Shown here in pieces: positions 39,523 to 62,796 of a DNA stretch of 64,000 nt. Within the stretch, counting starts at the first letter, position 1, and each line of letters opens with the position of its first letter. The notes under the pieces were generated by a model. The model ran no database searches. It saw only the letters and a list, made by a program, of their open reading frames with translations, and was not told the DNA's origin. Location: positions 2,080,001 to 2,144,000 of the forward strand of contig OZ252243.1 in NCBI GenBank assembly GCA_965249555.1, read 5' to 3'. This DNA is from Nitrosopumilus sp. (GTDB lineage: Archaea > Thermoproteota > Nitrososphaeria > Nitrososphaerales > Nitrosopumilaceae). A program made the position numbers and the translations under genes.

Positions 39523-40407
39523 ATGAATAGAGCAACTAATAACTCTGAAAAAAAACATACAAGTGTAGTGAGACACCACATAGTAGAGAAACCAATACCA
39601 AAACTAGATTTAATCAAACAGAGATTGGGCGATCCATATTATTCAGATGATAATGTTTTACTGTATAATATGGACTGTGTAGCACTTATGGATAAATTGG
39701 GATCAAACAAGGTAGATTTGACTATAACATCTCCGCCCTATAACATAGGTAAAGAATATGAAGAAATTCAGAAACCACAAGATTATTTATCCTGGTGTGA
39801 AAAATGGATGAATCTAATTTTTAATGCAACTGTTGATACTGGCACATTTTGGCTCAATCTTGGATATTTTGAATTACCAAATGGAAAGGCTGTACCTATT
39901 GCCTATTTGTTATGGGATAAAACAGACTTTTATTTTATGCAGGAAATTATTTGGTATTACAAAGCTGGTGTAGCAACAAAAAAATATTTTTCTCCAAGAA
40001 ATGAAAAATATTTGTGGTATGTAAAAAATCAATCAAGATACAAATTCAATCTAGATTCAATTAGAGATCCAGATGTAAAGTATCCCAATCAAAAGAAAAA
40101 TGGAAAACTAAAATGTAATCCATTAGGAAAAAACCCTACTAATGTTTGGGAAATACCAAAGATTACATCTGGTAAAAACAGATCATCCAAGGAACGTGTA
40201 AATCATCCAGCACAATTTCCAACCGCTGTTCTAGAGAGAATAATAAAAGCCTCCAGTAATCCGCATGATTTGGTTTTTGATCCCTTCTTGGGTTCTGGAA
40301 GTGTAGCTGTATCTGGTCTCAAAAACAATAGACAGGTGATGGGATGTGATATAAGCACAGATTATCTTGATATTGCTATTGATAGAATACAAAAATTAGA
40401 TGTTTAG
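39523..40407 (+). CDS. beta-class amino DNA methyltransferase (probably N4-cytosine)
   Basis: TSPPY motif IV precedes HPAQFP and DPFLGSGS motif I. Confidence 0.9.
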   Translation: MNRATNNSEKKHTSVVRHHIVEKPIPKLDLIKQRLGDPYYSDDNVLLYNMDCVALMDKLGSNKVDLTITSPPYNIGKEYEEIQKPQDYLSWCEKWMNLIFNATVDTGTFWLNLGYFELPNGKAVPIAYLLWDKTDFYFMQEIIWYYKAGVATKKYFSPRNEKYLWYVKNQSRYKFNLDSIRDPDVKYPNQKKNGKLKCNPLGKNPTNVWEIPKITSGKNRSSKERVNHPAQFPTAVLERIIKASSNPHDLVFDPFLGSGSVAVSGLKNNRQVMGCDISTDYLDIAIDRIQKLDV

Positions 40408-40602
40408 AAGTTTGTACCTTTCAACATTGATAGATAATCTTGATTGTTGTCCTGATTGTAATTTCTGACCTAGCCAATCCTTATGGTCTAACCAACCAAA
40501 CCTAACATTGATAATTTGAGGTATAATTTCTTTAGACACATATTTCTCAAAGTTTACTGCTATGTGATAGCCTGATTTGGATTTTTTGTATGAATCAAGC
40601 AC
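40396..40602 (-). pseudogene. C-terminal remnant of a type II restriction endonuclease (ScaI-like)
   Basis: KSKSGYHIAVNFEK...RFGWLDHKDW.GQ...GQQSRL recalled as ScaI-family; convergent with the MTase; cut by IS66. Confidence 0.55.
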
Positions 40603-41952
40603 TTAGATGTATTTTGCCATCTCAGAAAACATGTTCAATTCCCTTATTCTCCATGTCTCAAAGCATGTGAGAAAGACTGAGATCATCCTCATGCCCTGAT
40701 CACTCTTCATCTGCCCGCGAACATTCCTCTGCATCACGCACTTTCGAATGGAATTCTCTGCATCATTGTTAGTTGACGGGACATCACCATCCATGACAAA
40801 CGTAAACATGCTGTTCCTTGCAGTCTTTAGCTTCTTGCCAAACTGAACCATCTCCATATCACCTTTCAAATATCGTGCAATGATACGGTCTAGCTGTTTT
40901 AGTAAATCATCCCTGTACGTTTCCCGCCGTTTTGTATGACGATTACCTACACTCCAAACCCTGGCATGACCTAGCATATCTGAGAGTTTCTCGTATAGAA
41001 TCCTTGCCTTTTTGTCCTGTGATTTTATTGCCAGATATTTGGCATCGCGCTGCAGGTGTGCAGTGCATCTCTGCTTTGTGTTATCACAAAATACTGTCCT
41101 GTACGGAGCATATCCGTCAGACACTAGGGTTCCTTTGAATTTCTTCCAGTACTTTTTTAGAACATTGGCACCTCTGCTGTACTCCAAGGCATACTGTGCA
41201 CTAGTCTTGCTTCTTGCAACCCACATCCATCCAGTATTTCCATCAATTGAAAATCCTGTCTCATCGATTCCGAGAATCTTTTCAGTCACGATTTCGCTGT
41301 GGATTGTATTGTAAAATGACTCTAACATCACACTACCGTTGCGAAGAATGGATTGTACGGTTGTATTGCTGATTTCTAATCCATATCTTTCATAGAGTGT
41401 GGTTCTGATAGCATCGTATGTCAATCTCTTTGAGAACAGTGAGACGACCTCACGTATCACTGAACCATCAAAACATCCATGTGATGGAAGGTTTCCCGTG
41501 GTTTGAAAATTATCAGAACAGTCCATGCAGATGTATTGATTCAAAACATGCTCAGTTATACCGTAGGGTGTTGGTGGAGGAATCTCAACCATTATCCTTT
41601 TGCAGGTTTTGGTTTGATGAATATTTTCACTACCGCATTTGGGACATGCATCTGATCTGTGGTGTTTGGTGCTAGTTGGTCTGAATTTCTGTGTCTTGCC
41701 AACGTGTCCTGCTATTCCACCACGTCTTGATTTGTCTGGCTGTCTGTGTTGTCTTTTTTGCTTTCTCCATTCAAGGGAATTCTTTGATGGCGGAGAGTGA
41801 GCATTCTCATAATATGACAGCTTTTTTTGCAGTTCCTTGTTTGATTCTATGAGATTCTCTATGACTAGTTTTAGTTGTTTTATCACTTCGTCTTGTTGTT
41901 TTGTCTTTTTTTGTAGCTGTATGATGATTTTCTCATGACCACAACCTGACAT
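40603..41952 (-). mobile_element. IS66-family transposase, intact ORF
   Basis: leucine zipper, HSPPS, zinc finger, IDETG, LVSDGY..Y, QRCTAHL.R, TNNDAENSIR. Confidence 0.9.
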
Positions 41953-46267: not shown

Positions 46268-46846
46268 TTGCAGAATCCACCTATGGTCCAAAAGGAATCA
46301 AAAAACTCGTATTTGTTACTGTCTGGACAGAGAAGGCTTGCTGCCCTGAAAAGGTTGGGTGCAAAGAAGATACCAGTGTTATTGCTTACTCAGAGTACGA
46401 AATATGATGTACATGATGCAAAGGCTGCATCAGTGGTTGAGAATCTGCATCGAAACAAAATGAACACAAAGGACATGACGGCAGCATGTGTATTTTTGAC
46501 AGAATCAGTTGGAAAAAGTAAAGCTGCAAAATCACTAGGAATATCATCACAAACTCTCAAGAAATACCTTGGATTTGCAGCAGTTCCAGATAGATTGAGG
46601 CAGTTTGTACCAAAAGAGCTGTCTCGTGATGATTGTGTGAAATTATATCAGGTCATCCCAAATCTATCAAAGGCTGTATCTGTTGCAGAGAAGATCATTC
46701 CACTGGATCAGAAACTACGAAGAGAGTATCTCAAGGTTTTGAGTCGTAGTCCAAAAACATCTCAAGTTGCTCAAGAAAGCAAAGAGTGGATTACAACAGA
46801 GAGTTGTTATTTTGTTGAACAAGGGAAATGCCCGGAAACTGCGTAG
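46268..46846 (+). pseudogene. ParB/Srx-domain protein with HTH, 5'-truncated
   Basis: LLSGQRRLAALKRLG...IPV...ASVVENLHR...AAKSLGIS. Confidence 0.72.
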
Positions 46847-47256: not shown

Positions 47257-50200
47257 CTAGTCATTCCAGCTAAGATCAGAGTCATCATATATCATACAGT
47301 CACACAGCATCTCCTGGGCCAGCATCTCCTGTATGGATAGTGATTCCAGCAATGCGGGATCTGATACTCTGTCCAGCCTTAATGGCATGTCATATGAGAA
47401 TGATTCATCCAGAGTTCCCTGAATTGCCTTACTATCAAAGATTAGGGTTGCCCTGTCCTGCTCATCAATTACCAGATTTGCAAAGTTTGAATGAATTCTA
47501 GTCATTACGCTTGTTGGCAGATCATCTCTTTGTTGTATATCTGGTCTTGTAATCTGCAACCAGGTGCCATAGTCATTTTGTGACCATATGTATCCATATT
47601 GGTCCTCCCAGACCTGGTAACGTCTGTCCTGCTGGGTTAGTGATATGGTCTCAAACGGATTCTGGTTGCCATGCTTTTGTTTTAGTTCATGAGTTGCTGC
47701 TGCAAGTAATGCTTCTCCTGTAAACTCTACACCTTCGTTGATATATGTGGTAGTAGAATAACGTTGTTTGTCAACTGCATTAATTGCCAATACTTCATGG
47801 GATAATGGTGCCATTATTACAAATGATATGGTAACATCAAAGCACCTCTCTGCAGTATCTGATGATATGCATTTGACTTTGTCAATGGATGCACCAGTCA
47901 TCTTCTCATTTACTAGTTCCTCTTTTTGCTCATGGACTATATCTGCAATGTCATAGCCTGCAGGACTGGTATAGTTGCTATTTACATTTACTATAATGTG
48001 GGACTCTGCATTAGTTTTCAGGCCAATTTCTGGAACTCCAAGGGATAGAGATACCGACTTTAGACCATTTGTTGCATAGCCTTTGATGTGGACTGTATTG
48101 TTATCACCAATAATGCTGCTAGTCAGATTAAAGTCAGTGTGCCAGTTGTTTGTAATGGTTAATGGCATGCCATTAAAGACAAAGCCGTCATCAACTAGCT
48201 GTACTGCTTGATTATTCCAATGTTTGCCAAAGGTTGGCTTTGTTTTCCATTCATTAGAATCTCCACCTTTTTTCTTTGGTGTGTCAGTTCCAGTAATTAC
48301 ACCATCTCCACTATCGGAGTCATCAGGATTTTGAGCAGGTACTGTGTATGTTCTAGTTACAGATTCAGCTGCATTGTCTGATGCATCTACAGAATCATAA
48401 GTGATATCGTAATCGCCTTGTGTGTTAACATCAACATTTCCAGTTGTAGTAACTGTAGAGCCATCATCAGCTGAGACTCCTTTAAGCAAGTCAGGTTGTA
48501 ATGAGTCAGCTTGTAGTGTAACGGTAAGAGGATCAACTGTGATTACTGGTGGTGTTGTATCAGGTGGAGTTGGTGCTGCGGTAGCTGTAACTGTGACTGT
48601 TCTAGTTACTGTAACTGCATGGTTTCCGGCCGCATCAACTACATCAAAGGTAACATCATAGGTTCCAATCGTACTGGTATCAACTGTATCTCCAACAACT
48701 ACATCATCTGTGATAACTCCATCAGTGTTATCAGTTGCAGTAAAGGTGAATGGTGTGTATTCTTCTCCAAGTTCAACGGAGAATGATTCCTCATTGACTG
48801 TGATAGATGGTGCTGTTATATCAAATGCTTCAGGTACAGGTTCACATATTTCATTATCTACAGCAACACCCTTTATACAAACTCGATTAGCATCGTTTAG
48901 ATCGATGATATGAGTAATACGGATAGTATGTTGATTTGATCCGTCAGATGGAGTGAAAGTATCAAAATCACTACTACCGTCACTAATAATAAGAACATAG
49001 TTATTGGTGATACTAGTTTCTATATTACTCCAGGATACTGTAACGGAATTATCAGCATTTCTTACAGCATCTATTGTTGGTGGTGCTGCAACATCAGATG
49101 CTACTGTTACGGTTTCAGTGATGATAGCAAATAACCCATTGTTGTCAGTTACGGTATAAGTTACAGTATATTCTCCAGAAGTGTTGACATTTACCAAGTC
49201 ATCACCAACTACAATACTAGATGCAATTCCTGAGATATCAGATTCATTGGCAATTACACCTGGGGCGTATGTTCCGCCAAATGGTACTGTAGTTGTATAG
49301 TCAACTGTGTTACCATCAACATCAAAGGTTGGCGGTGTGGTATCAGATACGGTAATTGTAATTGATTGTTGGTCTGGCGTGTTACCTGCTGTATCAGCTG
49401 GCGCATCATACAATACGGTGTATACTCCTATAACACTGGAGTTAGGCGCATCATCTGTAATTGTTACTGTTCCAGAGTAGGCTGGGTCATTATCTTCTAC
49501 AGTAGCGTCAGGTATAGTGTAGGTGTCAGTTGTAGTTAACTCTATTGTTTCACTGGATCCTAATACCGTGATTACCGGTTTTTCGGTATCAAGTGTAATG
49601 ACTATAGCTGGTGATGCAGCAGATGTGTTGACTCCATCAGATGCTCTTGCAGTGAATGAGTTGGCACCCTCATCTAGTTCAACTCCTGCAAATGAGAAAT
49701 CACCTGATCCATCGGCAGTTACTGTACCAGCTGATGTCATTCCATTGAATAGTGTTATAGTTGCTCCGGCCTCAGTTGAACCGCCATCAATTGTGATTGG
49801 TGATGCGCCAACAGTTGCAGATGGTGTGGTAATTGCAGGAACTGGTGGTGGTGTGGTATCAACAGGTGGTACTTCTTCAGACGTTATATTATTATTATCT
49901 ACAGCACCACCAACGGGATTACCCTCAGAAAAACCAAATACACCAATTTCCTCAGCACTATTTGCTTTGTTAAAAGATGGATCATCTTTGGTAATAGTAT
50001 GTGGACTAGTGACAAGTTCAGCAATTGAATCAGGATCCTCACCTTCGTTAATTGCATAAATATTATAATCGGTACCAGGTATATTGCCCCAAGTTACTGT
50101 GATGGAGTCAGTAGTAGGTCTTGTAACTGTTACAAATGGTTCAGTTGGTGTAGTTGCTGCAAGTGTAGTTACAGACACGACACTAGAATCGGCACTGTCT

Positions 50201-53123
50201 CCAGCTGCTGCCACTGCCCTTATGGAATAGGTGTAAGTTGTTTCAGGTTCCAAGGTATCATCAGTGTATGATATCTCAGTCCCAGCGACGGGTATCTCAG
50301 TTGATCCTGTGCCACCTGTTCTGCTCAGTATGTAACCTGTTGCACTGGCAATTTTATTCCATGAGAGCGTTACACTGTTATGAGTAGGGGTTTCTGCCTC
50401 AAGTGTCGGGATGCCAGGTAGAGTCACTACTAATGGCCTCAGATATACATCGCCATTCAATAAAATGAGAATATCACTACTAAAACCATTGCCAAGGGAT
50501 AGTGGATCAGATGATACAGTGTTACCTATATCGCCAGTAGCAACAACTATGTCATCGCTGGCATCACCTGCCTCAACTAGAAATGTGCCTGCCCTTAACG
50601 GGACAAAGGATACAGTTACATCTCCAGCAGCATCTCCAGTATAACTAAATGTGCCTGCCCTGATTGCAAGTAGAGATGCAGGTGTGCTTGCAACTGTCGC
50701 ATCGTCAAATGAGAGGATTACATTGCCATCAAATTCATGGTTGACTGGTATCTGTTTACTTTTCACTATTTCATCTGTTACATCCGTATCTGTTACATCA
50801 ACAGTGTCAATCAACGTACCTGCCGTAATCGTAAATGTGCCTGCCTTTAAGGCTACAAACTCTACAAGTAAATCGTTTGTACCTATCGGAATAGTAACCT
50901 CAAAAGAGCCTGCCTCTATTGCCGGCTTAACCTCGGTCGTTACAGTCTGCCTTACAACGTCCTCACCGCCAAATGACAGGACGGCATTGCCGACATAGGA
51001 ATCCACATGATCAAATACGATGGTTACTCTGTCATCTATATTGTCGTTCGTAACAGCTATAGTTTTGGTCACTCCGTCCAACACAACACTGTATTCGCCT
51101 AGATGGCGGGGGTCAAATTCTACAAATACCTGGTCAAGAGAAAGAACTACGTAAACACTAAAAGAGTCTGCCTCTATTGCCGTCTGGTCAGATGTGTAAG
51201 TTGTTGTTGTGGCAACAAGAGTAGTTGCAGTGACCTCGTTAGAATCTACGCTTGTCCCGGCAGTATTTGTTGCCGTAATGGTATACTTGTAATTTGTTTC
51301 AGGTTCCAAGTTCTCATCATCGTAGAATGTATCAGTAATGTCCGGTATCTCTGATGTCTCTGTGCCAACAATTCTGGTCAAAGTGTAACTGTTGGCATTA
51401 TCCACTGCACCCCAGAAAAGCGTTATACGTGTGTCAGTGAATGATGCTAGTGTAAGTGCGGGAGTTTCAAGTGGAGCTGCAGTTACTTTGTATATTCTGG
51501 TTTTATCAACAGCTGGGTTTGTACCATCAGTTGAGGAATAAGTGATAGTGTAATCGCCTACTGTACCAACATCAACAGTTCCAGATATAGTAATTTCAGA
51601 GCCATCATCAGTTCTGACTCCAGTAGTAAGTTCTGGTGCAGGTGAGTTTAGTTCAAGAGTGATCTCTTCTGGAGTTACTGTGATTACTGGGGGAGTAGTA
51701 TCAGGTGCTGTTCCAGTTGTAGTTGTAGTAACCGTATTAGAACGAACACTTTCCCCAAAAGTATTTGTTGCTGTAACGAAATACTTGTACGCTGTACCAG
51801 AAAGCAGACCAGTATCACCGGTACTGAGTCCGCTGGTGCCTGACAACACTATTACATCATTACCGCCATCAACAATTCTGGTTAGAGTGTAACTGTCGGC
51901 ATTACTCACTGCAGTCCATGAAAGTAATATAATTGCATCAAGAGTTCTGTCTACAGAAAGTACGGGTGCGGCTGGTGGTGTAGTTAATGCTGTTCCAGTT
52001 GAAGTTGCAGACTCAACATTAGAAGTGGTAATTACCCCATCACCATCAAATGCTATGACATGATATTTGTAGGTTGTTCCAGGAAACACAGTATCCGTGT
52101 ATGTTGTCCCTGCAATATTTCCTCCTTGCTGACGGTTATCTCTATACACCTTATAGTATGTGGCATCAGTCACTGTATTCCATGAAAGTGATATAGTTGT
52201 ATCAGTAACTGCTCCTACAGAAATTACAAATGGATCTTCTACTGGTGGAGTTGTATCAGGTGCTGTGGTATCTGTAACTGTAACTGTTCTAGTTACTGTT
52301 TCTGCAAGGTTTCCAGCCGCATCAGCTACATCAAAGGTAACAGTGTAAGTATTAGCTACATTGATATCAACTGTATCTCCGTCAACAATTACACCACCTG
52401 TGATATCTCCATCAGTATCATCAGTTGCAAAATAGGTGAATGGCGTGTATGTTTCTCCAAGCTCGATGGAGAATGATTCTTCATTAACTGTGATTACTGG
52501 TTTTTCTGTATCTGGTGCACTAGTCGTTACAATCAAAGTATTAGAGTTAACTCTCGAGAGAGGATTATCGTAAAGTGCTCCGACATAATATTCGTAGGTC
52601 GTTCCAGGAGTCAGACCAGTATTAATGACGCTGGTGCGGGGGTCGCTGTAGGTGAGGTGGCGATTTGCTTGTAGTTCATCATTTCTATACACACTATAGT
52701 CAAAGGCATTATCTCGCGTCTTCCATAAAATCTCAATGCTTGTACTAGTGACGTCTCCCACACTAATTGTAGTTGGATTACGCGTTACAGTCTGCCTTGC
52801 AACTTCCTCACCGCCATATGACAAGATGACAGTATTAACAGAAGAACTCGCAATATTAAAGGAAATAGTTACTTCGTCATTAAGGTCATCTGATACAACA
52901 GTTCTAGTTTTGGTCTGTCCGCCCGCCGTAGCAGTGTATACGCCTTCCTTGAGGGGGTCAAAGTTTACCACTGTTTGGGTTGGAAGTGATCTAGTCTCAA
53001 AAGAGTCTCCATCGATTGCCGTCTGGCCAGGTGCGTAAGTTTGAGCCTCTGCACTTGCAAGAAGTGATATGGCAAACAGGACAACCCCCCCCCCACTAAC
53101 GCATTAAATAACATTTTATTCAT
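47257..53123 (-). CDS. large surface protein (FN3 and DUF5011/Ig-like repeats), frameshifted at a G10 tract in the signal peptide
   Basis: open frame 47257-53085; ATG at 53123 is out of frame; G8 or G11 gives MNKMLFNALVGG(G)VVLFAISLLASAEA-QTY. Confidence 0.8.
53085..53094 (-). repeat. G10 homopolymer, candidate phase-variation tract
   Basis: ten consecutive C on the plus strand in AT-rich DNA, at the frameshift. Confidence 0.75.
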
Positions 53124-55243: not shown

Positions 55244-55675
55244 CTAAATCAATCCTGGAACATCTGTGAATGGCTGGTAGTTGCAGTTTCTGCAGATCCA
55301 CAGCTCAAATGTATCATCTGTCAGTGTAGGATCTCCTCTCTTTATGAATTGGTATCCGTACTGTTGTGAATTGCATTTTGGGCATCCGTTGTCTGGACGG
55401 ACTATCTTTAGAGCGTCTCTGAATGGCATTGCAGGTGAGAGAATCAGCTTGGCGCCATTCCTCTTGATGTCTGGTATGTCAATATAGCCCCATTCGGCCA
55501 TCTCATCATTGTTCAGGTTGGCGTATCCGAATGCCTCATTTGTCTTTTCATCCAGTTCTGCCACACACCAGATGAAATTTACAGATGATACCATCCATAT
55601 CTGATGAATTATTTTTTCTGCAAACGGTGTTCCGTCTGTCTCGGATAGTCTTGGGATTATACTCTCGGAACTCAT
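55244..55675 (-). CDS. DUF2958-like protein with C-terminal zinc ribbon
   Basis: W.VAELD....AFGYANL....AEWGYIDI; CPKC...CRNC. Confidence 0.62.
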   Translation of the reverse strand: MSSESIIPRLSETDGTPFAEKIIHQIWMVSSVNFIWCVAELDEKTNEAFGYANLNNDEMAEWGYIDIPDIKRNGAKLILSPAMPFRDALKIVRPDNGCPKCNSQQYGYQFIKRGDPTLTDDTFELWICRNCNYQPFTDVPGLI

Positions 55676-56112
55676 TGTACTATTCTCACAAAGTCTGCCA
55701 TGAATCTTCCAAGGTCCTCTGTATTGCAGTAGTCATTTGATCCGCCCGTATAGTCCTCAAAGTTTTCAGCAGTTCTGATCAGGAAACATTTGTCCCATCT
55801 GAGATCACCAATGCTGAAATAATAGATGTTTCCATTTCTTATCTCAAAGAATCCGTGTTGATCAAAGTGGTTTGGTTTTGCTATCTCTATCTTTGTTATC
55901 TCGAAATTATCATGCAATAATTTCGTGAACTGTTTTTTGAAGACTTTGCAGAATGTCAAGTATTGTGTGGTTATTGAACTTGATGACTTGTATTCTGCAT
56001 TTAGGAGAGCAAACCAATTCTTTGATGCTTCCTTGAAATTATCTTCCTTGATTGCACCTAGCTTGTCTTGCAACTCTCTTATCTGTTGCTCTATCTCTAT
56101 TTGTTGGACCAT
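55672..56112 (-). CDS. hypothetical MGE protein
   Basis: GGAGG upstream of ATG (MVQQ); YFSIGDLRW...LIRTA....DYTGGSN phage/plasmid-type motif. Confidence 0.6.
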   Translation of the reverse strand: MVQQIEIEQQIRELQDKLGAIKEDNFKEASKNWFALLNAEYKSSSSITTQYLTFCKVFKKQFTKLLHDNFEITKIEIAKPNHFDQHGFFEIRNGNIYYFSIGDLRWDKCFLIRTAENFEDYTGGSNDYCNTEDLGRFMADFVRIVQ

Positions 56113-56340
56113 TCGGTTCAACCTCCTATTTCTGAAATAACGTTTCCAGTGGTACGATTCCTGTATGTGAAGTTACTTTCTGGGCATCTCTTTGAGATAT
56201 CATATTTGCAACTTCAAGGAATAATTTTCATTGAAACCGTCTGTGATTTCAATTATACAATCTCACACCCATCCGCTGAGTCGGTTCTGAAATTATATCT
56301 CAGAATAAAACGGGTTTGGATGATATGGCTCAGTCAAAAA
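56101..56340. repeat. 240-bp leader repeat, copy 1 (copy 2 at 57729-57968)
   Basis: near-identical sequence including structured motif, RBS and first four codons. Confidence 0.9.
56262..56336 (-). ncRNA. pseudoknot leader motif, copy A
   Basis: CTGAG/CTCAG, ACCCGT/ATGGGT (one mismatch) and a 9-bp hairpin. Confidence 0.6.
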
Positions 56341-56354
56341 AAGATGCTGTATGT

Positions 56355-56819
56355 CTACAGCTTGTCTTCGATTTTCTTTAAGATACCTGTCATATCTTTG
56401 AGAGAATTTGATGTCTCTTTCTGAGATGATGCTATCTCTTTGAGAGAATTTGATGTCTCTTTCTGAGATGATGCTGTCTCTTTCTGAGATGATGCTATCT
56501 CTTTGAGAATTCCAGATATCTCTATATGGTTTTCTTTGAGAATTTTTGTATGGCTCTCAAGGATTTCATTTTGCTCGTTGAATCGCCTGTACAGCTTGTG
56601 TGCCACATCTCTTGTTGCAAGCATCATATAGACACCTACGACGCCGGCAATAATAAAGGCAGCTCCCAAGGCAATCAGCATTTCATTATATGGGGGCGTG
56701 ATTCCAAGTGCCAGAATACCTGCTCCCAGACACATTATAACAAACAACCAGTGGTTGCCTTTTGTGGTATCTTGTATTTGGGATGAAATCCTTCTTATCT
56801 GGTTTTTGGTATCTACCAC
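56355..56819 (-). CDS. two-TM protein with heptad-repeat coiled-coil tail
   Basis: two TM helices; 21-bp SQKETAS/LKEIASS repeats. Confidence 0.65.
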   Translation of the reverse strand: MVDTKNQIRRISSQIQDTTKGNHWLFVIMCLGAGILALGITPPYNEMLIALGAAFIIAGVVGVYMMLATRDVAHKLYRRFNEQNEILESHTKILKENHIEISGILKEIASSQKETASSQKETSNSLKEIASSQKETSNSLKDMTGILKKIEDKL

Positions 56820-56893
56820 TTGTAATTTTTATCTCCGTTGTTATCCCACATTATCCCAGTCATGTGTCTCATCTGTATGCTCCTCTTAAAAAA

Positions 56894-57181
56894 CTAAGAG
56901 GCATGTACAAGCTCTGATTCTGCAGATAGTTTCTGCAACATTTTTACTGCAATGACATGCGAGCATTCACCTCGAAACTTGAATCCCATACATTCGCATA
57001 TCTCATCATTTATGATGTATGATCTTCCAGGAGTGGATGCGTTTACCTGGTAGGTATCATCATCAATCTGAATGATGCATTTTGTGTCTATGAGATTCTG
57101 TGCCTTTTTCTCCGTGAATTCAGACATTACCCACATTGGATGAAGACGTATCAAGGTGGATTTCTGTCGTATCACTCTCAT
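56894..57181 (-). CDS. SWIM zinc-finger protein
   Basis: CECMGFKFRGECSHVIAV. Confidence 0.72.
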   Translation of the reverse strand: MRVIRQKSTLIRLHPMWVMSEFTEKKAQNLIDTKCIIQIDDDTYQVNASTPGRSYIINDEICECMGFKFRGECSHVIAVKMLQKLSAESELVHAS

Positions 57182-57531
57182 AGAGTTGTATAATCTCCAT
57201 CACACACTCGGGTTTCTAATGTTGCTCCTGCAAACCAATTACTTTTAGTTAGTTCTTGCAGCTGCTGTCCTACCTTGTTTTCAGATACTCCAGATGCTGA
57301 TTTGGCAGACCATGTGATTCCAAGTTCTCTTTGTGTGTGTCCGCATTTCTCCGGTCCGTTGAATCTGATTTCAGTTGGAGCAATTGTCGGATAGTTCGTA
57401 CCCATTCCGTCTGCAAGAACTACTCCAAGATGTCTTAGTGGTGTTACCATCTTTTTGAAATCCGTTGCAACTTTTGAGAATTTTCCCGCATCAAACTCTG
57501 GTGATACGTAATAGTAGTGAGTGTAACCCAT
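57178..57531 (-). CDS. hypothetical MGE protein (MGYTHY start), possibly truncated
   Basis: MGYTHYY...EIRFNG pattern seen in phage/plasmid hypotheticals. Confidence 0.5.
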   Translation of the reverse strand: MGYTHYYYVSPEFDAGKFSKVATDFKKMVTPLRHLGVVLADGMGTNYPTIAPTEIRFNGPEKCGHTQRELGITWSAKSASGVSENKVGQQLQELTKSNWFAGATLETRVCDGDYTTL

Positions 57532-57740
57532 TAGTTGCACTCTACACAGTTACATGACACTGCATGCTGTTCTGGTAATGAGGAATAGTATGCTTCATTT
57601 ACAATCTTTTCCTCATGACACTGTTGCAGGATTTCAAGTTGTTCTGAACTCCACCCCATGCTAACTATACACTTTGTATGAGAGAGGGGATTTTGTGAAT
57701 TGATTTCTGTGCTCTCACTTGCACTGTTTTGTTGGACCAT
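57531..57740 (-). CDS. small hypothetical protein
   Basis: same RBS and MVQQ start as 55672-56112; ends HAVSCNCVEC. Confidence 0.5.
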   Translation of the reverse strand: MVQQNSASESTEINSQNPLSHTKCIVSMGWSSEQLEILQQCHEEKIVNEAYYSSLPEQHAVSCNCVECN

Positions 57741-57889
57741 TCGGTTCAACCTCCTATTTCTGAAATAACGTTTCCAGTGGTACGATTCCTGTATGTGAAA
57801 TTACTTTTTGAGCATCTCTTTGAGATGTCATATTTGCAACTTCAAGGAATAATTTTCATTGAAACCGTCTGTGATTTCAATTATGTCAT

Positions 57890-57964
57890 CTCACACCCGT
57901 CCACTGAGTCGGTTCTGAAACTATGTTTCAAAATAAAACGGGTTTGGATGGTATGGCTCAGTCA
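57890..57964 (-). ncRNA. pseudoknot leader motif, copy B
   Basis: ACCCGT/ACGGGT; hairpin closing pair C-G versus T-A in copy A. Confidence 0.6.
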
Positions 57965-57985
57965 AAAAATGTGGTGTTTGAAAAC

Positions 57986-58381
57986 TCAGTCTTTGCTTTG
58001 TAGAATGTCTTTTATCTCGTTCTGAGATTTTGCCATCTCGTTCTGAGATTTTGCCATCTCGTTCTGAGATTTTACTATCTCGTTCAGAGATTCTGTAATG
58101 GATTGCAATGCCTTTATGATACTTGTGCCAATATTCATGTTTTCTTTGCCGACATCATATATTGCCTCTTTGATACTTGTGCCAATATCCATCGTAGTCC
58201 AAGACATTAACATACCTACGAACCCAACTATAATAAAGGCTATGCCTTCACTTAGCAGTCGTTTGTCTGTCAGTTGGCTTGTGATGGTTAGGAATGACCC
58301 AACTACTACCATTGCCACAAATATCATGTTTTGACGTCGTGTAAGACTGGTTCTTATTCTGTCTGTGGTTATTTTTTCCAT
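57986..58381 (-). CDS. two-TM protein with heptad-repeat tail
   Basis: two TM helices; SQNEMAK 21-bp repeats; same architecture as 56355-56819. Confidence 0.65.
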   Translation of the reverse strand: MEKITTDRIRTSLTRRQNMIFVAMVVVGSFLTITSQLTDKRLLSEGIAFIIVGFVGMLMSWTTMDIGTSIKEAIYDVGKENMNIGTSIIKALQSITESLNEIVKSQNEMAKSQNEMAKSQNEIKDILQSKD

Positions 58382-58415
58382 TTTCTTTTTTGTAATGCTG
58401 CAAGCATCATACCTT

Positions 58416-58482
58416 CTCCACATCCAATCTGCCTGTCAGGTGCATTTGCACTGATATTGGATTTGAGAGGATTGTCAGGTCA
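58416..58482 (-). ncRNA. pseudoknot leader motif, copy E
   Basis: CCTG/CAGG, ATCCAAT/ATTGGAT, GTGC-AAAT-GCAC. Confidence 0.55.
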
Positions 58483-58527
58483 CAAAAAAAGGATTGTATG
58501 GTGTAAAAATCACCATTTAACATTTGG

Positions 58528-59100
58528 TTATACCAAATATTTTGAGTGAGCCCTTAATTGCATGAAAGCACAGTGCAGAATGTTATACATTGTGTTCTGG
58601 TCTCGCGTGTGTTGGTTTGAGGATACATGTAAAAGAATGGCTTGTAGTGTTTCAACTTTCTCATTTCTTTCAAACTCCCACAAATGCCTGAGGTCGGCTT
58701 TGAACAGATTTCTATAAAATCCTTCACCATTATCAAGTGTCTGATGGGCAGTCTCTATGTTGTTAAAGTCACCAGTGTCCATATATCCAGACCTTTTGGT
58801 TATCCCATCTGACCTTGCAATGATAAATCTGTTAAAGTCTGTATCCGGCTCTAACTGATCCCATGCAAATGCCTCAAACACTTTTATCCCATATGAAAGA
58901 CTGGATTCATCCCCTACGATTATGTTATCATAGTTGTAGAATTTTCTTATCTCTTCCAGACTGGATTTGTCTGGTTTTGATCCTGTTGCTATTAGTATTT
59001 TCCCACATCTCAAAGTCAACTCATCTTTGTTAGATATGTCTCTTAATGTCAATACTAAATCAAGGTTCTCACTGTATTCTGATTTGTTCATTTTTTTCAC
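58528..59100 (-). CDS. hypothetical protein
   Basis: 190-aa ORF directly downstream of motif copy F. Confidence 0.6.
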   Translation of the reverse strand: MKKMNKSEYSENLDLVLTLRDISNKDELTLRCGKILIATGSKPDKSSLEEIRKFYNYDNIIVGDESSLSYGIKVFEAFAWDQLEPDTDFNRFIIARSDGITKRSGYMDTGDFNNIETAHQTLDNGEGFYRNLFKADLRHLWEFERNEKVETLQAILLHVSSNQHTRDQNTMYNILHCAFMQLRAHSKYLV

Positions 59101-59114
59101 TTTTTATCTTCCTT

Positions 59115-59180
59115 CTCCACACTTGCCTGCCTGTCAGGTACTTTCGTACTGTTGCAAGATTTGAGAGGATTGTCAGGTCA
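59115..59180 (-). ncRNA. pseudoknot leader motif, copy F
   Basis: CCTG/CAGG, CTTGC/GCAAG, GTAC-GAAA-GTAC (GNRA loop on the minus strand). Confidence 0.55.
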
Positions 59181-59345
59181 GTCCCTAGGATGTGCTGAAT
59201 TGTGGTCGCATACGCAAAGTAAACCCACAACTCAATACACCTTCGGGTATTATGGAGCCTTTCTGTCGTTGTAAGATGAGTTCTGCATCATTTGGGAGAT
59301 GTCATAACTTTATCTTTGTAATTGTTCCAAAGTCTTCAGTAGACA

Positions 59346-60152
59346 TTAGTTCTCTATCTCTATTGGCGGGTTTTCTTTAGTGATATTTTCAGCATCACTT
59401 AACATTGCAGTTATTGCCTTTTGTACTCTGCTGAGAACCTTAAAGCATGCCCGTCCAACTTCTTCTGGAGAGTCAGTTTTTGCATATGTTGCGATATAAT
59501 TCCAGGTGTAGTTTTCTGAATCATATCCGTACATCTTTGCAAGTACACAAGCTCCCAACTGTGCGACTGTTTCTTGTTCTGGGTCTTGTTTTAGCTTTAG
59601 TTTGATATTTTTGTTATCATACCAGTGAACTAATTCGTGTAGAAATGTATCAGGAGCTTCGGTACTCAGTACAATCTCTTTTCTTTTTGGATCAATTGAA
59701 CCGTATTCTCCATGACGTGTGTTTTCCCATTTCACATCAATTCCATTTTTTGCTGCCAAGTCAAACAACGGAGGCAGAACTTTTGGGGCATATTCTTGCA
59801 GAGGTTCACCTTCTGTATCCTCATATCGAAATACAGGCATTCCCCTGAATCCAATCACTATTGTTTTGTCCTCTTCATTTTTGTCTTTGATTCTTTTTTG
59901 CATTGGAATCAATATGTATATTGCCTTGGAACCTTTTTTGACATGTCTTCTTACCTGCTCCCACTGCCTGTATCCTCTTGCATCAGTTGTTCCAGAGAAG
60001 AGCATTAGTACTTGGTTTCCCAAAGACCATGAGGATGATGGAATTTCTTCTGCACTGATGAATGCCTTTGCACATGTTTCTGCAAACTCTTTGTTGGAAA
60101 AGTGTTCTACAATGTCATTTAGAATAGCTGTTGCCTTTTCAGAATTCTTCAT
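59346..60152 (-). CDS. ardC: ArdC-family ssDNA-binding/antirestriction protein with metallopeptidase domain
   Basis: WSLGNQVL...ARGYRQW....RHVKKGSKAI.I..P, VF..EDTEG, LHELVH, EQETVAQL. Confidence 0.78.
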   Translation of the reverse strand: MKNSEKATAILNDIVEHFSNKEFAETCAKAFISAEEIPSSSWSLGNQVLMLFSGTTDARGYRQWEQVRRHVKKGSKAIYILIPMQKRIKDKNEEDKTIVIGFRGMPVFRYEDTEGEPLQEYAPKVLPPLFDLAAKNGIDVKWENTRHGEYGSIDPKRKEIVLSTEAPDTFLHELVHWYDNKNIKLKLKQDPEQETVAQLGACVLAKMYGYDSENYTWNYIATYAKTDSPEEVGRACFKVLSRVQKAITAMLSDAENITKENPPIEIEN

Positions 60153-60445
60153 TGTGATGTGTATATTTGATAGCTTCGAATTGAAGACCGGCTGTTTGTG
60201 TTATGCTCTATGAGATTGTCTTTGAGATCATATCCTAGACTCTGATTCTGTTTTGCATTGCAAAACAAAGTAGCGTCACAATCTTCTTCAAGGTACACAT
60301 ATTTGTCGTTTGTGTAACTGTATTTTGAGATTTTCTCGGCAATTCCCAAGGACTCTAGTTCAGATTGTAAGACTTTGAGCCATCCGTGACTTTGGTCTGA
60401 AAAGAAATGGTACTTTTCGTTTGTTTCTATTACTTTTTGTTTCAT
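60149..60445 (-). CDS. conserved MGE/phage-type hypothetical protein
   Basis: SDQSHGWLKV...IS.YSY.....YLEEDCDA; AGGAGG RBS. Confidence 0.62.
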   Translation of the reverse strand: MKQKVIETNEKYHFFSDQSHGWLKVLQSELESLGIAEKISKYSYTNDKYVYLEEDCDATLFCNAKQNQSLGYDLKDNLIEHNTNSRSSIRSYQIYTSQ

Positions 60446-60469
60446 GTTTTTCCTCCTTAAAGGGACCAT

Positions 60470-60544
60470 CTCACACATCCGTTCTGCTGAGTCAGCTGGT
60501 ATTATTATACCAGGATAACGGAGTTGGAGTGGTAGTCTCAGTCA
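60470..60544 (-). ncRNA. pseudoknot leader motif, copy D
   Basis: CTGAG/CTCAG, TCCGTT/AACGGA, CTGGTAT/ATACCAG. Confidence 0.6.
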
Positions 60545-60613
60545 AGAAAAAAATTGGGGTTGTGGATAGATGTTCTGGTGTGTTTGTAACTACACACCGT
60601 CTCATCTGGTTTG

Positions 60614-61651
60614 TTATATTTTCTGACTCGCTGTTGGGACAGGAAGCGAGCTTGCAAAGGATTGTACTATATGCTGGTTCTTTTCTTTGTGGTCTTTTTT
60701 GGTTGGTAGATTACCATATTTGTAGTCCAGTCTCCTCAGTTCTGTACCGTCCCATTTCTTCTCAAGAGAGTCTGCCTTTCTTTTGTACACCTTGGACTGT
60801 CTTTTGGATGTATGATTCCATGAATCAATCATCTCTGCAGATAGGACTGGTGTTGTGTGGATGATGAATGCTTTTGTCTCTGCGTTGAACTGTCTGTCTT
60901 TGGCATCATCTGTTGGCTCTCGATTGTATTTTTTGAGAATCTCTAGTTTGTCAGAGTCTGTCAATGGTCTGTCTCCTTCACTGATTGCAGCAACAAAAAT
61001 CAGACTGCATGATAGTATGGGTCTGACCTGAACAGTCTTTACCTCATCACCGCTTGGAATTAATAGTAATTCCTCACTGTGTGTTTTTCCTGTTGTCTGT
61101 ATGGATGATATTCCAGATAACTTTGGAGTGATTCCGGTACTCTGGTATCTCCTTGGTCGGTGTGATAGAATTCTGTCAGTCCTTTCAGCTGCTCTGATGT
61201 CTTTTTTTGCAAATTCTATCTCCAGGAATTGCTCATCCCATGATGGTACGATACCAGTAGAGAATCTCTTTCTTTGTACAAGGTATCCTCCACAGACACA
61301 ACGAGTTATGTCTGCTGGTTGTTTCCAGGAATGGCATCTCTTGCAACAAGTTGCCTTTTCAGTTTTTATGGAATCCATGTCAACTGGCTGTACTTCCAAT
61401 GGATATGCTCCCTTGAATTTCTTCATTGGAATCTCAAATAAACAGAGTTTGCCGTCTTGAAGAACTGCTACTACACCCTCTTTGGCTCTGAATTGAATCA
61501 AAGCCTTGTTGGTACGGTCATATTTGACATGACCTCTGTACCCTTGGGATTCTAGTTTCTGCTCAAGGTAGTTCTTTACCAAAAGCAATTTTTGACTACT
61601 TGGTACATTTTTGATACTTGTACTGGTATTGTTTGAATTTTTGAAAACCAT
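60614..61651 (-). CDS. basic hypothetical protein with zinc ribbon
   Basis: 345-aa ORF; CKRC...C.CGG; GGAGA upstream. Confidence 0.6.
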   Translation of the reverse strand: MVFKNSNNTSTSIKNVPSSQKLLLVKNYLEQKLESQGYRGHVKYDRTNKALIQFRAKEGVVAVLQDGKLCLFEIPMKKFKGAYPLEVQPVDMDSIKTEKATCCKRCHSWKQPADITRCVCGGYLVQRKRFSTGIVPSWDEQFLEIEFAKKDIRAAERTDRILSHRPRRYQSTGITPKLSGISSIQTTGKTHSEELLLIPSGDEVKTVQVRPILSCSLIFVAAISEGDRPLTDSDKLEILKKYNREPTDDAKDRQFNAETKAFIIHTTPVLSAEMIDSWNHTSKRQSKVYKRKADSLEKKWDGTELRRLDYKYGNLPTKKDHKEKNQHIVQSFASSLPVPTASQKI

Positions 61652-61966
61652 TTGGCTTCATCTCCTTTTGCAAAAAACATACCGAAGTTGTAACATATGA
61701 TGTCTGGTTTCTAGTAGATGTTGTCATCCAGCTTAGCCTAGGCTAAGATTAAAAAAATACATGGATGTGATTGAATATCAATCTACTGTCTGTTATCTGA
61801 CAGACTGTGTTGCACTGAAAAAAGATTTCACGTGTCTGTAGTCTTTGTATGCTTTTGCTAGTTTGGTTGTATTTCTGTCAGATTTTATCCTGCCAGAACA
61901 GACGTCATTTCTGAAAATATCGTTTTTCATCTGGACGATTCTCATATGAGAATTTTTTTTACCAGT

Positions 61967-62041
61967 CGCACACCCATCCGCTGAGTCGGTTCTGAAACTG
62001 TGTTTCAAAATAAAATGGGTTTGGACTGTATGGCTCAGTCA
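61967..62041 (-). ncRNA. pseudoknot leader motif, copy C
   Basis: ACCCAT/ATGGGT, compensatory to copy B. Confidence 0.6.
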
Positions 62042-62082
62042 AGAAAAAAATTGGATTTCTGTAAATTTCTTTACAGTTGGTT

Positions 62083-62796
62083 TTAGCACCCAGATTGTTT
62101 TGCCCATGGTTCATCACCGAATTCACTGATATTACAGAATCGATGAATGATCTCCGCATGGCTGTTTGATACGAGTAATGAGTTGATAGATGCAGTTGGA
62201 GTGTGTGCTGGATATCCCATACACCACACCTTGGCAATCATCCTACCATGTGAGCCGCCTTTCTGCCCGTCGTCTGCATCATAGAGTACCGCGGTTCCAA
62301 CAGGGCATTGCTTTATTGTAAATGCAGTCGCATTAGAATAGCCTTGCTCGTTACGCTCTGGAGTGTTCACCAGGGATAGTCGTATTCGAATACCATCAAT
62401 GTCTATGGTATCACCGTCGACAATCTTTGTGACTTTTCCACTCTTAACCGTTCCATATGGTATGACATCAGGGATTTGCTGTTTTGCAATATTTGTTGAT
62501 GCAATATCATTTGGCGTATCTGCCGGTTCTGATATCTGGGTGTCATTGTGAACTTTTTCAAGTTCGTTTGTGGTGTTTGCAAAGACTGCACTTATGCCCT
62601 CTGTTTTTTCCTCAACTGATGATATCATTCCGGGAATGTCTGCTGCAAGCAGTGCTGGAACAACATAGGCGTATGTGAGGGATGCAATGCTGACAATAAA
62701 TACAGTCATGCAAACAGCCACTGTTATTTTTTTGATAAATTGTTTTTTTGACATGGACTCGTATGTGAGTTTCGGAAACTTATTCCTCATCAGCAT
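62083..62796 (-). CDS. membrane-anchored thermonuclease (SNase family)
   Basis: TM helix; VTKIVDGDTI...IRLSLVNTPE...HGRMIAKV...IN..LV. Confidence 0.85.
   Translation of the reverse strand: MLMRNKFPKLTYESMSKKQFIKKITVAVCMTVFIVSIASLTYAYVVPALLAADIPGMISSVEEKTEGISAVFANTTNELEKVHNDTQISEPADTPNDIASTNIAKQQIPDVIPYGTVKSGKVTKIVDGDTIDIDGIRIRLSLVNTPERNEQGYSNATAFTIKQCPVGTAVLYDADDGQKGGSHGRMIAKVWCMGYPAHTPTASINSLLVSNSHAEIIHRFCNISEFGDEPWAKQSGC

Follow-up and report, generated by a model that had tools for sequence, protein, structure and literature searches.

A recurrent pseudoknotted motif in the gene leaders of a Nitrosopumilus mobile element, a candidate cistron-start RNA

The DNA analyzed here, referred to throughout as the window, is a stretch of 64,000 nucleotides (nt) from Nitrosopumilus sp. 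(GenBank assembly GCA_965249555.1, contig OZ252243.1, positions 2,080,001 to 2,144,000 of the forward strand). Toward its end lies an array of small co-directional genes on the minus strand, punctuated by copies of a structured motif of about 80 nt, and this motif is the subject of the present analysis. The array is part of what is, as judged from its sequence, an integrated conjugative-type element with a long one-directional gene array. It is located downstream of, and co-oriented with, a TraG/VirD4-like gene, both here and in 5/5 other genomes tested, and other genes of the element encode TBP-like, actin/ParM-like, ArdC-like and SNase-like proteins. Apart from the SNase/endonuclease-like and ArdC-like open reading frames (ORFs) listed in the table, the ORFs of the array between 55672 and 62796 gave no family match. 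The host encodes archaeal AmoA and two β-CASP nucleases.

An earlier note on this DNA had described six copies of the motif in the window, all on the minus strand, and all six were recovered there by a strand reading of positions 56000-62300 together with an anchor search. The T of the initial TGA lies at 62041, 60544, 59180, 58482, 57964 and 56336 (minus strand), and the coordinates given in the note proved to be the 3′ (low) ends of the copies. The proposed layout was borne out when the helix coordinates were mapped, with TGA followed by the 5′ strand of helix P1, a linker, the 5′ strand of P2, a hairpin (P3), C(T/C)GA, P1′, 3 nt, P2′ and GTG. In the six copies the linker measured 13-15 nt with CAA at its end, P3 comprised 4-9 bp with loops unrelated to one another, and the order 3′ of the hairpin was CYGA, P1′, a 3-nt joiner (CGG, CAG or TGG), P2′ and GTG. 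Both proposed types of P1 were found, CTGAG/CTCAG in 4/6 copies and CCTG/CAGG in 2/6, and all five proposed versions of P2 were complementary, with a G-C, G-U, A-U series among the three closest copies. A tract of T6-7 preceded five of the six copies as described, the exception being the copy at 59180; in the copy at 56336, a small hairpin holding the upstream stop codon sits 5′ of this tract.

Other statements of the note stood in part. The GAAA loop was present but confined to the copy at 59180. Several copies had been placed just before a ribosome-binding site, whereas only the copy at 60544 directly precedes a strong Shine-Dalgarno (SD) sequence (AAGGAGG at 60458-60452, ATG at 60445), the leaders of the copies at 57964 and 56336 being about 150 nt long. 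The linker is C/A-rich as stated, but its 3′ half is not a loop and pairs with the tail after GTG as a fourth helix, P4.

Since a loose pseudoknot scan gave hundreds of chance matches in this AT-rich genome, a strict descriptor (TGAC, P1, P2, GA before P1′ and GTG after P2′) and covariance models were used. Over the 2.23-Mb genome, the strict descriptor matched at 11 sites, every one of them on the minus strand of this element, compared with 1, 1 and 0 sites in three Markov random genomes. MAFFT misaligned the two subtypes when applied to the six copies, and model-based alignments were therefore used. A first covariance model was based on three near-identical copies and proved insufficiently general (E = 2.5 for the copy at 58482, that at 59180 missed); the model R2 was built from 11 copies. 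The earlier note had proposed a covariance model and a wider search, and these gave 16 copies in the genome and further copies in other archaeal genomes. The 16 copies, all on the minus strand, extend from C1:2136258 to C1:2157618, or from window position 56258 to a point some 13.6 kb beyond the end of the window, with a spacing of 0.5-2.5 kb, and the next-best match in the genome had E = 0.43. The count of six holds for the window, but the element total is 16, with ten copies past the window end.

With R2, the motif was found in 18 of 150 further same-genus genomes (1-23 copies each) and in 6 of 141 genomes from other genera of the family, which added four further genera; nine same-genus genomes within this family-wide draw had no motif. 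In an order-wide draw with the same model, 1 of 23 genomes of a second family was positive, with a convincing copy, and 0 of 104 genomes across 18 further families. In metagenome contigs a pattern scan picked out 80 loci, of which 10 held true model matches and 70 were due to chance, while two pattern scans of viral contigs gave no match. The copies were always clustered and on a single strand per source (52/52 sources), and the motif is a convenient marker for such elements in genomes and metagenomes.

Table. Coordinates of the motif copies and neighboring features. Positions refer to the window, where 56258 = genome C1:2136258, unless marked L021, the stretch beyond the window end (L021:13677-13735 = genome C1:2157677-2157735).
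Feature	Position	Strand	Details
Small co-directional genes punctuated by the motif	55672..62796	-	ORFs
Copy c6 with T tract	61963..62050	-	T7 62050-62044; TGA 62041-62039; R2 94.8 bits; P1 62038-62034 (CTGAG)/61985-61981; P2 62020-62015/61977-61972; P3 9-bp hairpin 62010-61990; P4 62028-62024 (CAGTC)/61967-61963 (GACTG); junction CCGA 61989-61986, CGG 61980-61978
Copy c5 with T tract, SD and start codon downstream	60465..60553	-	T7 60553-60547; TGA 60544-60542; R2 67.8 bits; P1 60541-60537/60491-60487; P2 60522-60517 (TCCGTT)/60483-60478; P3 7-bp hairpin 60513-60496; P4 linker 60533-60525 to tail ending 60465
Copy c4, type B, without T tract	59110..59180	-	TGA 59180-59178; R2 35.7 bits, E = 6.3e-6; P1 59177-59174 (CCTG)/59133-59130 (CAGG); P2 59158-59154 (CTTGC)/59126-59122; P3 GTAC-GAAA-GTAC 59149-59138; P4 3′ strand 59117-59110
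Copy c3, type B, with T tract	58412..58490	-	T7 58490-58484; TGA 58482-58480; R2 54 bits; P1 58479-58476/58435-58432; P2 58462-58456 (ATCCAAT)/58428-58422; P3 58451-58440; P4 3′ strand within 58419-58412, overlapping GGAG just 5′ of ATGATG
Copy c2 with T tract	57887..57969	-	T6 57969-57964; TGA 57964-57962; R2 101.2 bits; P1 57961-57957/57908-57904; P2 57943-57938 (ACCCGT)/57900-57895 (ACGGGT); P3 57933-57913; P4 57950-57947 (CATC)/57890-57887 (GATG)
Copy c1 with T tract	56258..56342	-	T7 56342-56336; TGA 56336-56334; R2 98 bits; P1 56333-56329/56280-56276; P2 56315-56310/56272-56267, including one G·U; P3 56305-56285, including one G·U
Shared upstream block of about 40 nt	59185-59225; L021:11500-11545	-	upstream of copies without T tract
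SNase/endonuclease-like ORF	62083-62796	-	PHROG 452, E = 4.3e-10
ArdC-like ORF	59346-60152	-	PHROG 7245, E = 2.3e-11; Pfam ArdcN E = 5e-4, below cut-off
TBP-like protein, 202 aa, near TraG-like gene	L021:16411-17019	-	one Pfam TBP match, E = 3.6e-8, above cut-off
Tandem module array	L021:400-11500; 55600-58500	-	includes exact 2557-bp duplication
C/D box sRNA-like gene	L021:13677-13735 = C1:2157677-2157735	-	terminal stem; C ATGATGA, D′ CTGA, C′ TGATGA, D CTGA
1904-aa protein	47257-52971	- (array strand)	five bacterial-surface Ig-like and two fibronectin type III stretches
N6/N4 DNA methylase and IS66-family transposase	39523-41952		E = 1.2e-55 (methylase), E = 6.3e-41 (transposase); edge of GC-richer block
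ParB-N-like ORF, weak	46268-46846

The fold was deduced from sets of 104 distinct sequences, 134 once other genera were added. It consists of four helices, P1-P4, with a pseudoknot formed via P1. P4 joins the 3′ half of the linker to the tail after GUG, and between P4 and P2 the conserved CAA stands opposite GUG as C-G, A-U and an A·G mismatch (88% paired). The long irregular stem P4-P2 encloses a loop of about 19 nt carrying P3 and the strand CYGA-P1′-CRG, and it is into this enclosed loop that UGA-P1, directly after the U tract, pairs back to form the pseudoknot. About 20 junction bases (UGAC, CAA, the A before P3, CYGAC, GCRG and GUG) were kept in at least 92 of the 104 sequences, and the first base of the 3-nt joiner before P2′, inspected with the conserved catalytic C of HDV-like ribozymes in mind, was C in 101 of them.

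The claim that P1 and P2 covary and cross was borne out by shuffles, slides and permutations, with compensatory changes in every helix. For P2 and P3, 95.2% of 1267 cells were paired compared with 66.2 ± 0.9% after shuffling (0/500 reached the observed value) and 35-48% when slid, and 15/15 pairs varied on both sides, in an alignment that was fitted to those two helices and leans toward them. Over all 27 pairs, including P1 and P4, the corresponding values were 87.9%, 67.9% (0/500) and 36-44%. The support for P1 and P4 is independent of the fit because the alignment model did not treat them as pairs. With fixed anchors, P1 was paired in 85.5% of cells over the 134 distinct sequences compared with 64.4 ± 1.9% after shuffling, and it occurred as five complementary pair sets (CTGAG/CTCAG, CCGAG/CTCGG, CTGGG/CCCAG, CCTG/CAGG and CTGG/CCAG); mismatched variants also exist, for example CCGAG/CTCAG (5 sequences) and a CAGAG 5′ strand (7 sequences). 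For P4, the linker-tail duplexes of 42 families averaged −6.34 kcal/mol for cognate and −3.75 kcal/mol for non-cognate combinations, a difference reached in 0/20000 permutations, and perfect duplexes of 8, 8, 7, 7 and 6 bp with unrelated sequences were found in different genomes. Minimum free energy (MFE) folding recovered P4-P2-P3 in 6/6 sense copies, with z-scores of −1.3 to −2.8 (−2.83 for the copy at 62041) compared with −0.15 to −1.8 for the antisense strands. That the conserved pseudoknotted structure is real is hardly in doubt.

The position of the motif relative to genes was equally regular. A same-strand ORF ended at most 160 nt upstream in 163/173 copies, with a median of 23 nt from stop codon to motif, and a same-strand ORF started at most 320 nt downstream in 158/173 copies; the proteins encoded downstream formed 71 clusters. 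At least four T residues directly preceded UGAC in 112/125 distinct upstream contexts and at least six in 97/125, and the 10 nt preceding the tract were A/C-rich and G-poor. In the host at large, T6+ was found within 120 nt after the stop in 270/1194 long ORFs, little above the expected value of about 19%, and the T tract is therefore assigned to the motif unit. In the first copy of the array, P3 and GUG are missing and UGA is replaced by AAA, while its helices are kept. A TATA-like box precedes this copy by 22-25 nt in three genomes, and from this the primary transcript is inferred to start at the edge of the first motif copy. A sigma-70 promoter scan gave 20 sites compared with 21.3 expected, which is at shuffle level for a consensus that is bacterial and not applicable to archaea. 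Of the 13 copies that no T tract precedes, five have in common a different conserved block upstream, about 40 nt in length. This block contains a 7-bp hairpin, has GACTGAC as its last bases, and may represent either a promoter-proximal element or another RNA element.

In P3, 48 G·U (G·T) cells and no A·C cells were counted on the sense strand, in line with the wobble bias toward the minus strand noted earlier, and the fold is for this reason assigned to the non-template (sense) strand. The assignment rests mainly on P3 and gene context, and G·T pairs do not separate RNA from single-stranded DNA (ssDNA). The copies were co-oriented with genes in 52/52 sources, and this co-orientation, together with intergenic siting and SD coupling, supports the motif behaving as a cis-acting RNA.

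A folded ssDNA signal in transfer or replication, whether a priming site or an attC/REP-type recombination site, is very unlikely, although the element contains conjugation-type genes (TraG-like, ArdC-like), the copies recur along one strand at intervals of 0.5-2.5 kb, and the tandem duplication of modules between copies shows recombination there. Sequence-variable, structure-conserved repeats between cassettes also recall attC. Both attC and Frpo are strand-specific repeats between cassettes or early genes, in which structure is kept and sequence varies; they are, however, imperfect ssDNA hairpins, the Frpo hairpin forming on the template strand, where it re-creates a duplex promoter. The motif is a sense-strand pseudoknot whose T tract has no paired partner, and a sense-strand fold cannot be a Frpo-type template-strand promoter. 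From attC it is set apart by description, no attC model being used, in that it is knotted via P1 and has no integrase within 590 kb. Neither the pseudoknot nor the SD coupling is a feature of attC, no copy was found outside the gene array, and no tyrosine recombinase was found within 590 kb, the five Phage_integrase matches of the genome all lying elsewhere. In the available text of PMC6563490, thaumarchaeal integrative and conjugative elements (ICEs) are described as having no detected relaxase, and transfer as double-stranded DNA is proposed. The ssDNA promoter raised in the earlier note is likewise disfavored by the sense-strand fold, the unpaired T tract and this apparent lack of a relaxase (PMC6563490).

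The coupling to SD sequences concerns a subgroup of the copies. In about 16 of them, drawn from the window, other genomes and metagenome contigs, the motif end is followed by 6-10 nt, GGAGG, 6-8 nt and ATG, with unrelated proteins encoded downstream. The 3′ end of the host 16S rRNA (...GGAUCACCUCCU) confirms these GGAGG sites as true SD partners, and the fixed spacing leaves no room for a promoter between motif and gene. In type B copies, the P4 3′ strand (GGAG/GGGAAAGG) lies 5-8 nt before a conserved ATG/GTG-CTT-GC start. These arrangements would suit a translational leader in which the fold gates access to the SD, with P4 or the tail masking it in type B, or insulates the start region. Such a role is nevertheless quite unlikely: GGAGG or AGGAG occurred within 50 nt in only 21/148 distinct downstream contexts, the start codon is about 150 nt away in many copies, including those at 57964 and 56336, and P1 and the T tract would have no role. 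The conserved start ATG/GTG-CTT-GC of type B copies opens a short ORF that was observed in the window (58400-58412, minus strand) and in other genomes; in the window it has 13 codons and overlaps the start of the membrane-protein gene, and it may be a leader peptide.

The earlier remark that the motif fits no ribozyme or riboswitch consensus agrees with a comparison to Rfam 15 (4227 models, including the known ribozyme and riboswitch classes held there). There was no match at gathering score in the whole window; at E up to 10, positions 55500-62600 gave four weak unrelated matches, none of them for the motif, and 12 short loci holding 12 copies gave none. Literature searches found no description of the motif within their coverage, which did not extend to the supplement of PMC6563490, and no structured RNA for mobile elements of ammonia-oxidizing archaea; in the text available from PMC6563490, the terms "secondary structure", "stem-loop" and "ArdC" do not occur. 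By these comparisons the motif would be an RNA class not previously described. Other candidates were rejected as well. A −1 frameshift signal does not agree with an ORF that stops before the T tract, at the distance given above (163/173 copies); by eye, there was no GA after a 3-nt bulge as in a kink-turn, and no C box in the motif as in a C/D box RNA.

The regularities of fold and position recall self-cleaving RNAs, and it is conceivable, if doubtful, that the motif represents a small self-cleaving ribozyme of a new class, with a cleavage site at its 5′ edge, either at the invariant UGA or adjacent to it. We consider it similarly doubtful that such a cut splits the polycistronic RNA and leaves a structured 5′-OH leader on each message. 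Variable helices with about 20 near-invariant junction bases have the usual look of a catalytic core. Hepatitis delta virus (HDV)-like ribozymes, which cleave at their 5′ edge and are frequent in mobile elements, share with the motif the strand order P1, P2, P3 hairpin, P1′, P2′ and a 5′-most helix knotted into the core. The many copies between co-directional genes of a mobile element resemble known phage ribozymes, and the loss of UGA, P3 and GUG from the first copy, at the predicted transcript start, fits a copy that has no need to cut. On the other hand, the P3 loops vary (ATA, AATA, GAAA, AAAT and others), so that an HDV-type P1.1 cannot form; only 3 nt (CRG), and no P4 hairpin, separate P1′ from P2′; P1 has 4-5 bp rather than 7; and the outer helix P4 is additional. 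No ribozyme family of Rfam matched even at E 10, and a ribozyme would leave the conserved T tract without a role.

The reading that we favor, with a probability of roughly 30%, is that the motif is a new cis-acting structured RNA forming the first ~80 nt of each cistron's leader, where it would define or shield the 5′ end of the message. The gene array would be transcribed as long RNAs that are cut or end at U6-8 tracts, possibly through the action of a host U-specific β-CASP nuclease. The new 5′ end would be held in the pseudoknot, blocking 5′-to-3′ exonucleases and 5′-end-dependent decay, and the downstream message would thereby be stabilized and insulated from its upstream context. In type B, where the 3′ strand of P4 also covers the SD-like GGAG, the fold may gate translation as well. 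Archaeal operons are said to be tuned by internal operon terminators. As far as the consulted parts of these papers go, FttA/aCPSF1 binds U-rich RNA, cuts it and then digests 5′ to 3′ (PMC11616081), and the thaumarchaeal aCPSF1 ortholog cooperates with U tracts (PMC8716108).

The nearest likeness for a leader that shields its own 5′ end is found in the exonuclease-resistant RNAs (xrRNAs) of flavivirus class 1, families of which are included in Rfam. The resemblance is one of topology only: the 5′ flank pairs into a stem-enclosed junction (their PK1, here P1), variable helices are combined with conserved junction bases, and the RNA to be protected has the fold at its 5′ border. The motif differs in having a single internal hairpin (P3) and no true three-way junction, with first copies lacking P3 altogether, and in being encoded in an archaeal DNA mobile element in 16 U-tract-adjacent copies without an Rfam match at E up to 10. 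According to the portion of PMC8374639 consulted, the 5′ flank of xrRNAs is paired into the junction to form a blocking ring, and the small enclosed loop has 15-16 nt, comparable to the ~19 nt found here.

Several points weigh against a 5′-end-shielding leader. The second, latching pseudoknot of xrRNAs is absent, and the P3 loop varies in sequence and length. A G·U excess is clear only in P3, with 14 G·U and 15 A·C cells in P2 and 58 and 35 in P4. A T6-8 tract should terminate archaeal transcription, and read-through RNA with the whole motif may therefore be scarce. The tract could also be a TATA-like box, since the conserved CCAAA follows it at a distance of about 22-24 nt, as in a promoter; the resulting RNAs would be without the 5′ strands of P1 and P4, and the covariation of these helices would be left unexplained. 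The first copy would bear a 5′ triphosphate, yet its helices are kept. Where P4 is long, 4-6 nt separate it from P1, perhaps too few for the two helices to coexist, in which case the motif would more likely be a switch than a static block. Finally, FttA is reported in the consulted part of PMC11616081 to cut about 22 nt from the RNA 3′ end, and because of this the knot would still be unfolded when termination at its own tract had to be stopped, which leaves later decay as the sole process that it could block. For the same reason, the idea that the motif halts FttA at its own U tract (an anti-torpedo block) was rejected, the cut preceding folding (PMC11616081).

A site on the nascent RNA for RNA polymerase or for an element factor, acting in put/nut-like antitermination or as the operator of a regulatory protein, appears unlikely. 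HK022 put and lambda nut are cis-acting structured RNAs in the operons of mobile elements, where terminators must be passed, and the presence of a copy at the predicted array start and after nearly every T tract places the motif where re-arming would be needed. A protein or the polymerase could contact the conserved junction bases. These bacterial sites are, however, simple unknotted stem-loops, one or two per operon, that do not abut T tracts, and antitermination would not require the tight abutment of T tract and UGAC. No protein that accompanies the motif and might bind it was found among the downstream genes with their 71 clusters, and we know of no RNA-based antitermination in archaea. 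A possible factor is nonetheless encoded by the element itself, in the TBP-like protein listed in the table, and the accessible part of PMC6563490 describes TFIIB homologues and transcription factors of their own in thaumarchaeal ICEs. The TBP-like protein may serve element-specific transcription.

To our knowledge, few structured RNAs have been described from archaeal mobile elements. The motif might be the first prokaryotic "cistron-start" RNA, either as a new self-cleaving ribozyme class or as the first cellular or archaeal xrRNA-like block, which conjugative-type elements of ammonia-oxidizing archaea would employ together with the U tracts to cut long transcripts into separately stabilized messages; we regard this broader statement as a genuine possibility that falls short of even odds. 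If true, it would amount to an RNA punctuation system for archaeal operons. Self-cleavage would add a ribozyme class, whereas exonuclease blocking would place the xrRNA strategy outside RNA viruses and tie it to archaeal termination and decay by U tracts and β-CASP nucleases, and either activity would explain how long one-directional arrays of small, possibly anti-defense, genes are expressed. A small knotted RNA with four covarying helices, an invariant core and about 170 variants is well suited to biochemistry and structure determination, and it may offer a compact insulator part for archaeal genetics.

Further features were observed around the array. Part of it is built of a tandem module repeated about seven times. 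In each unit, a motif copy is accompanied by a leader about 150 nt long that contains another hairpin and mini-ORFs, by ORFs encoding 69, 120 and 77-99 aa, of which the last is rich in Cys and His, and by a gene for a membrane protein that carries SQKE/SQNE repeats. Elsewhere in the window, the gene for the 1904-aa protein is located in a GC-richer block (about 39-43% compared with about 33% for the host), and ARAGORN found no tRNA-like gene between 46000 and 64000. Directly upstream of the first motif copy is a C/D box small RNA (sRNA)-like gene, which occupies the same place in two other genomes. In Rfam this locus gave weak matches to about 25 C/D families, the best being sR1 with 25.1 bits and E = 1.7e-4 (gathering score 45). 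If this holds, the mobile element would encode a guide RNA. Upstream of it, L021:13740-13790 (minus strand) contains a partial copy corresponding to the 5′ half of the first-copy motif variant, so that the sRNA seems to lie inside or beside a decayed copy of the motif.

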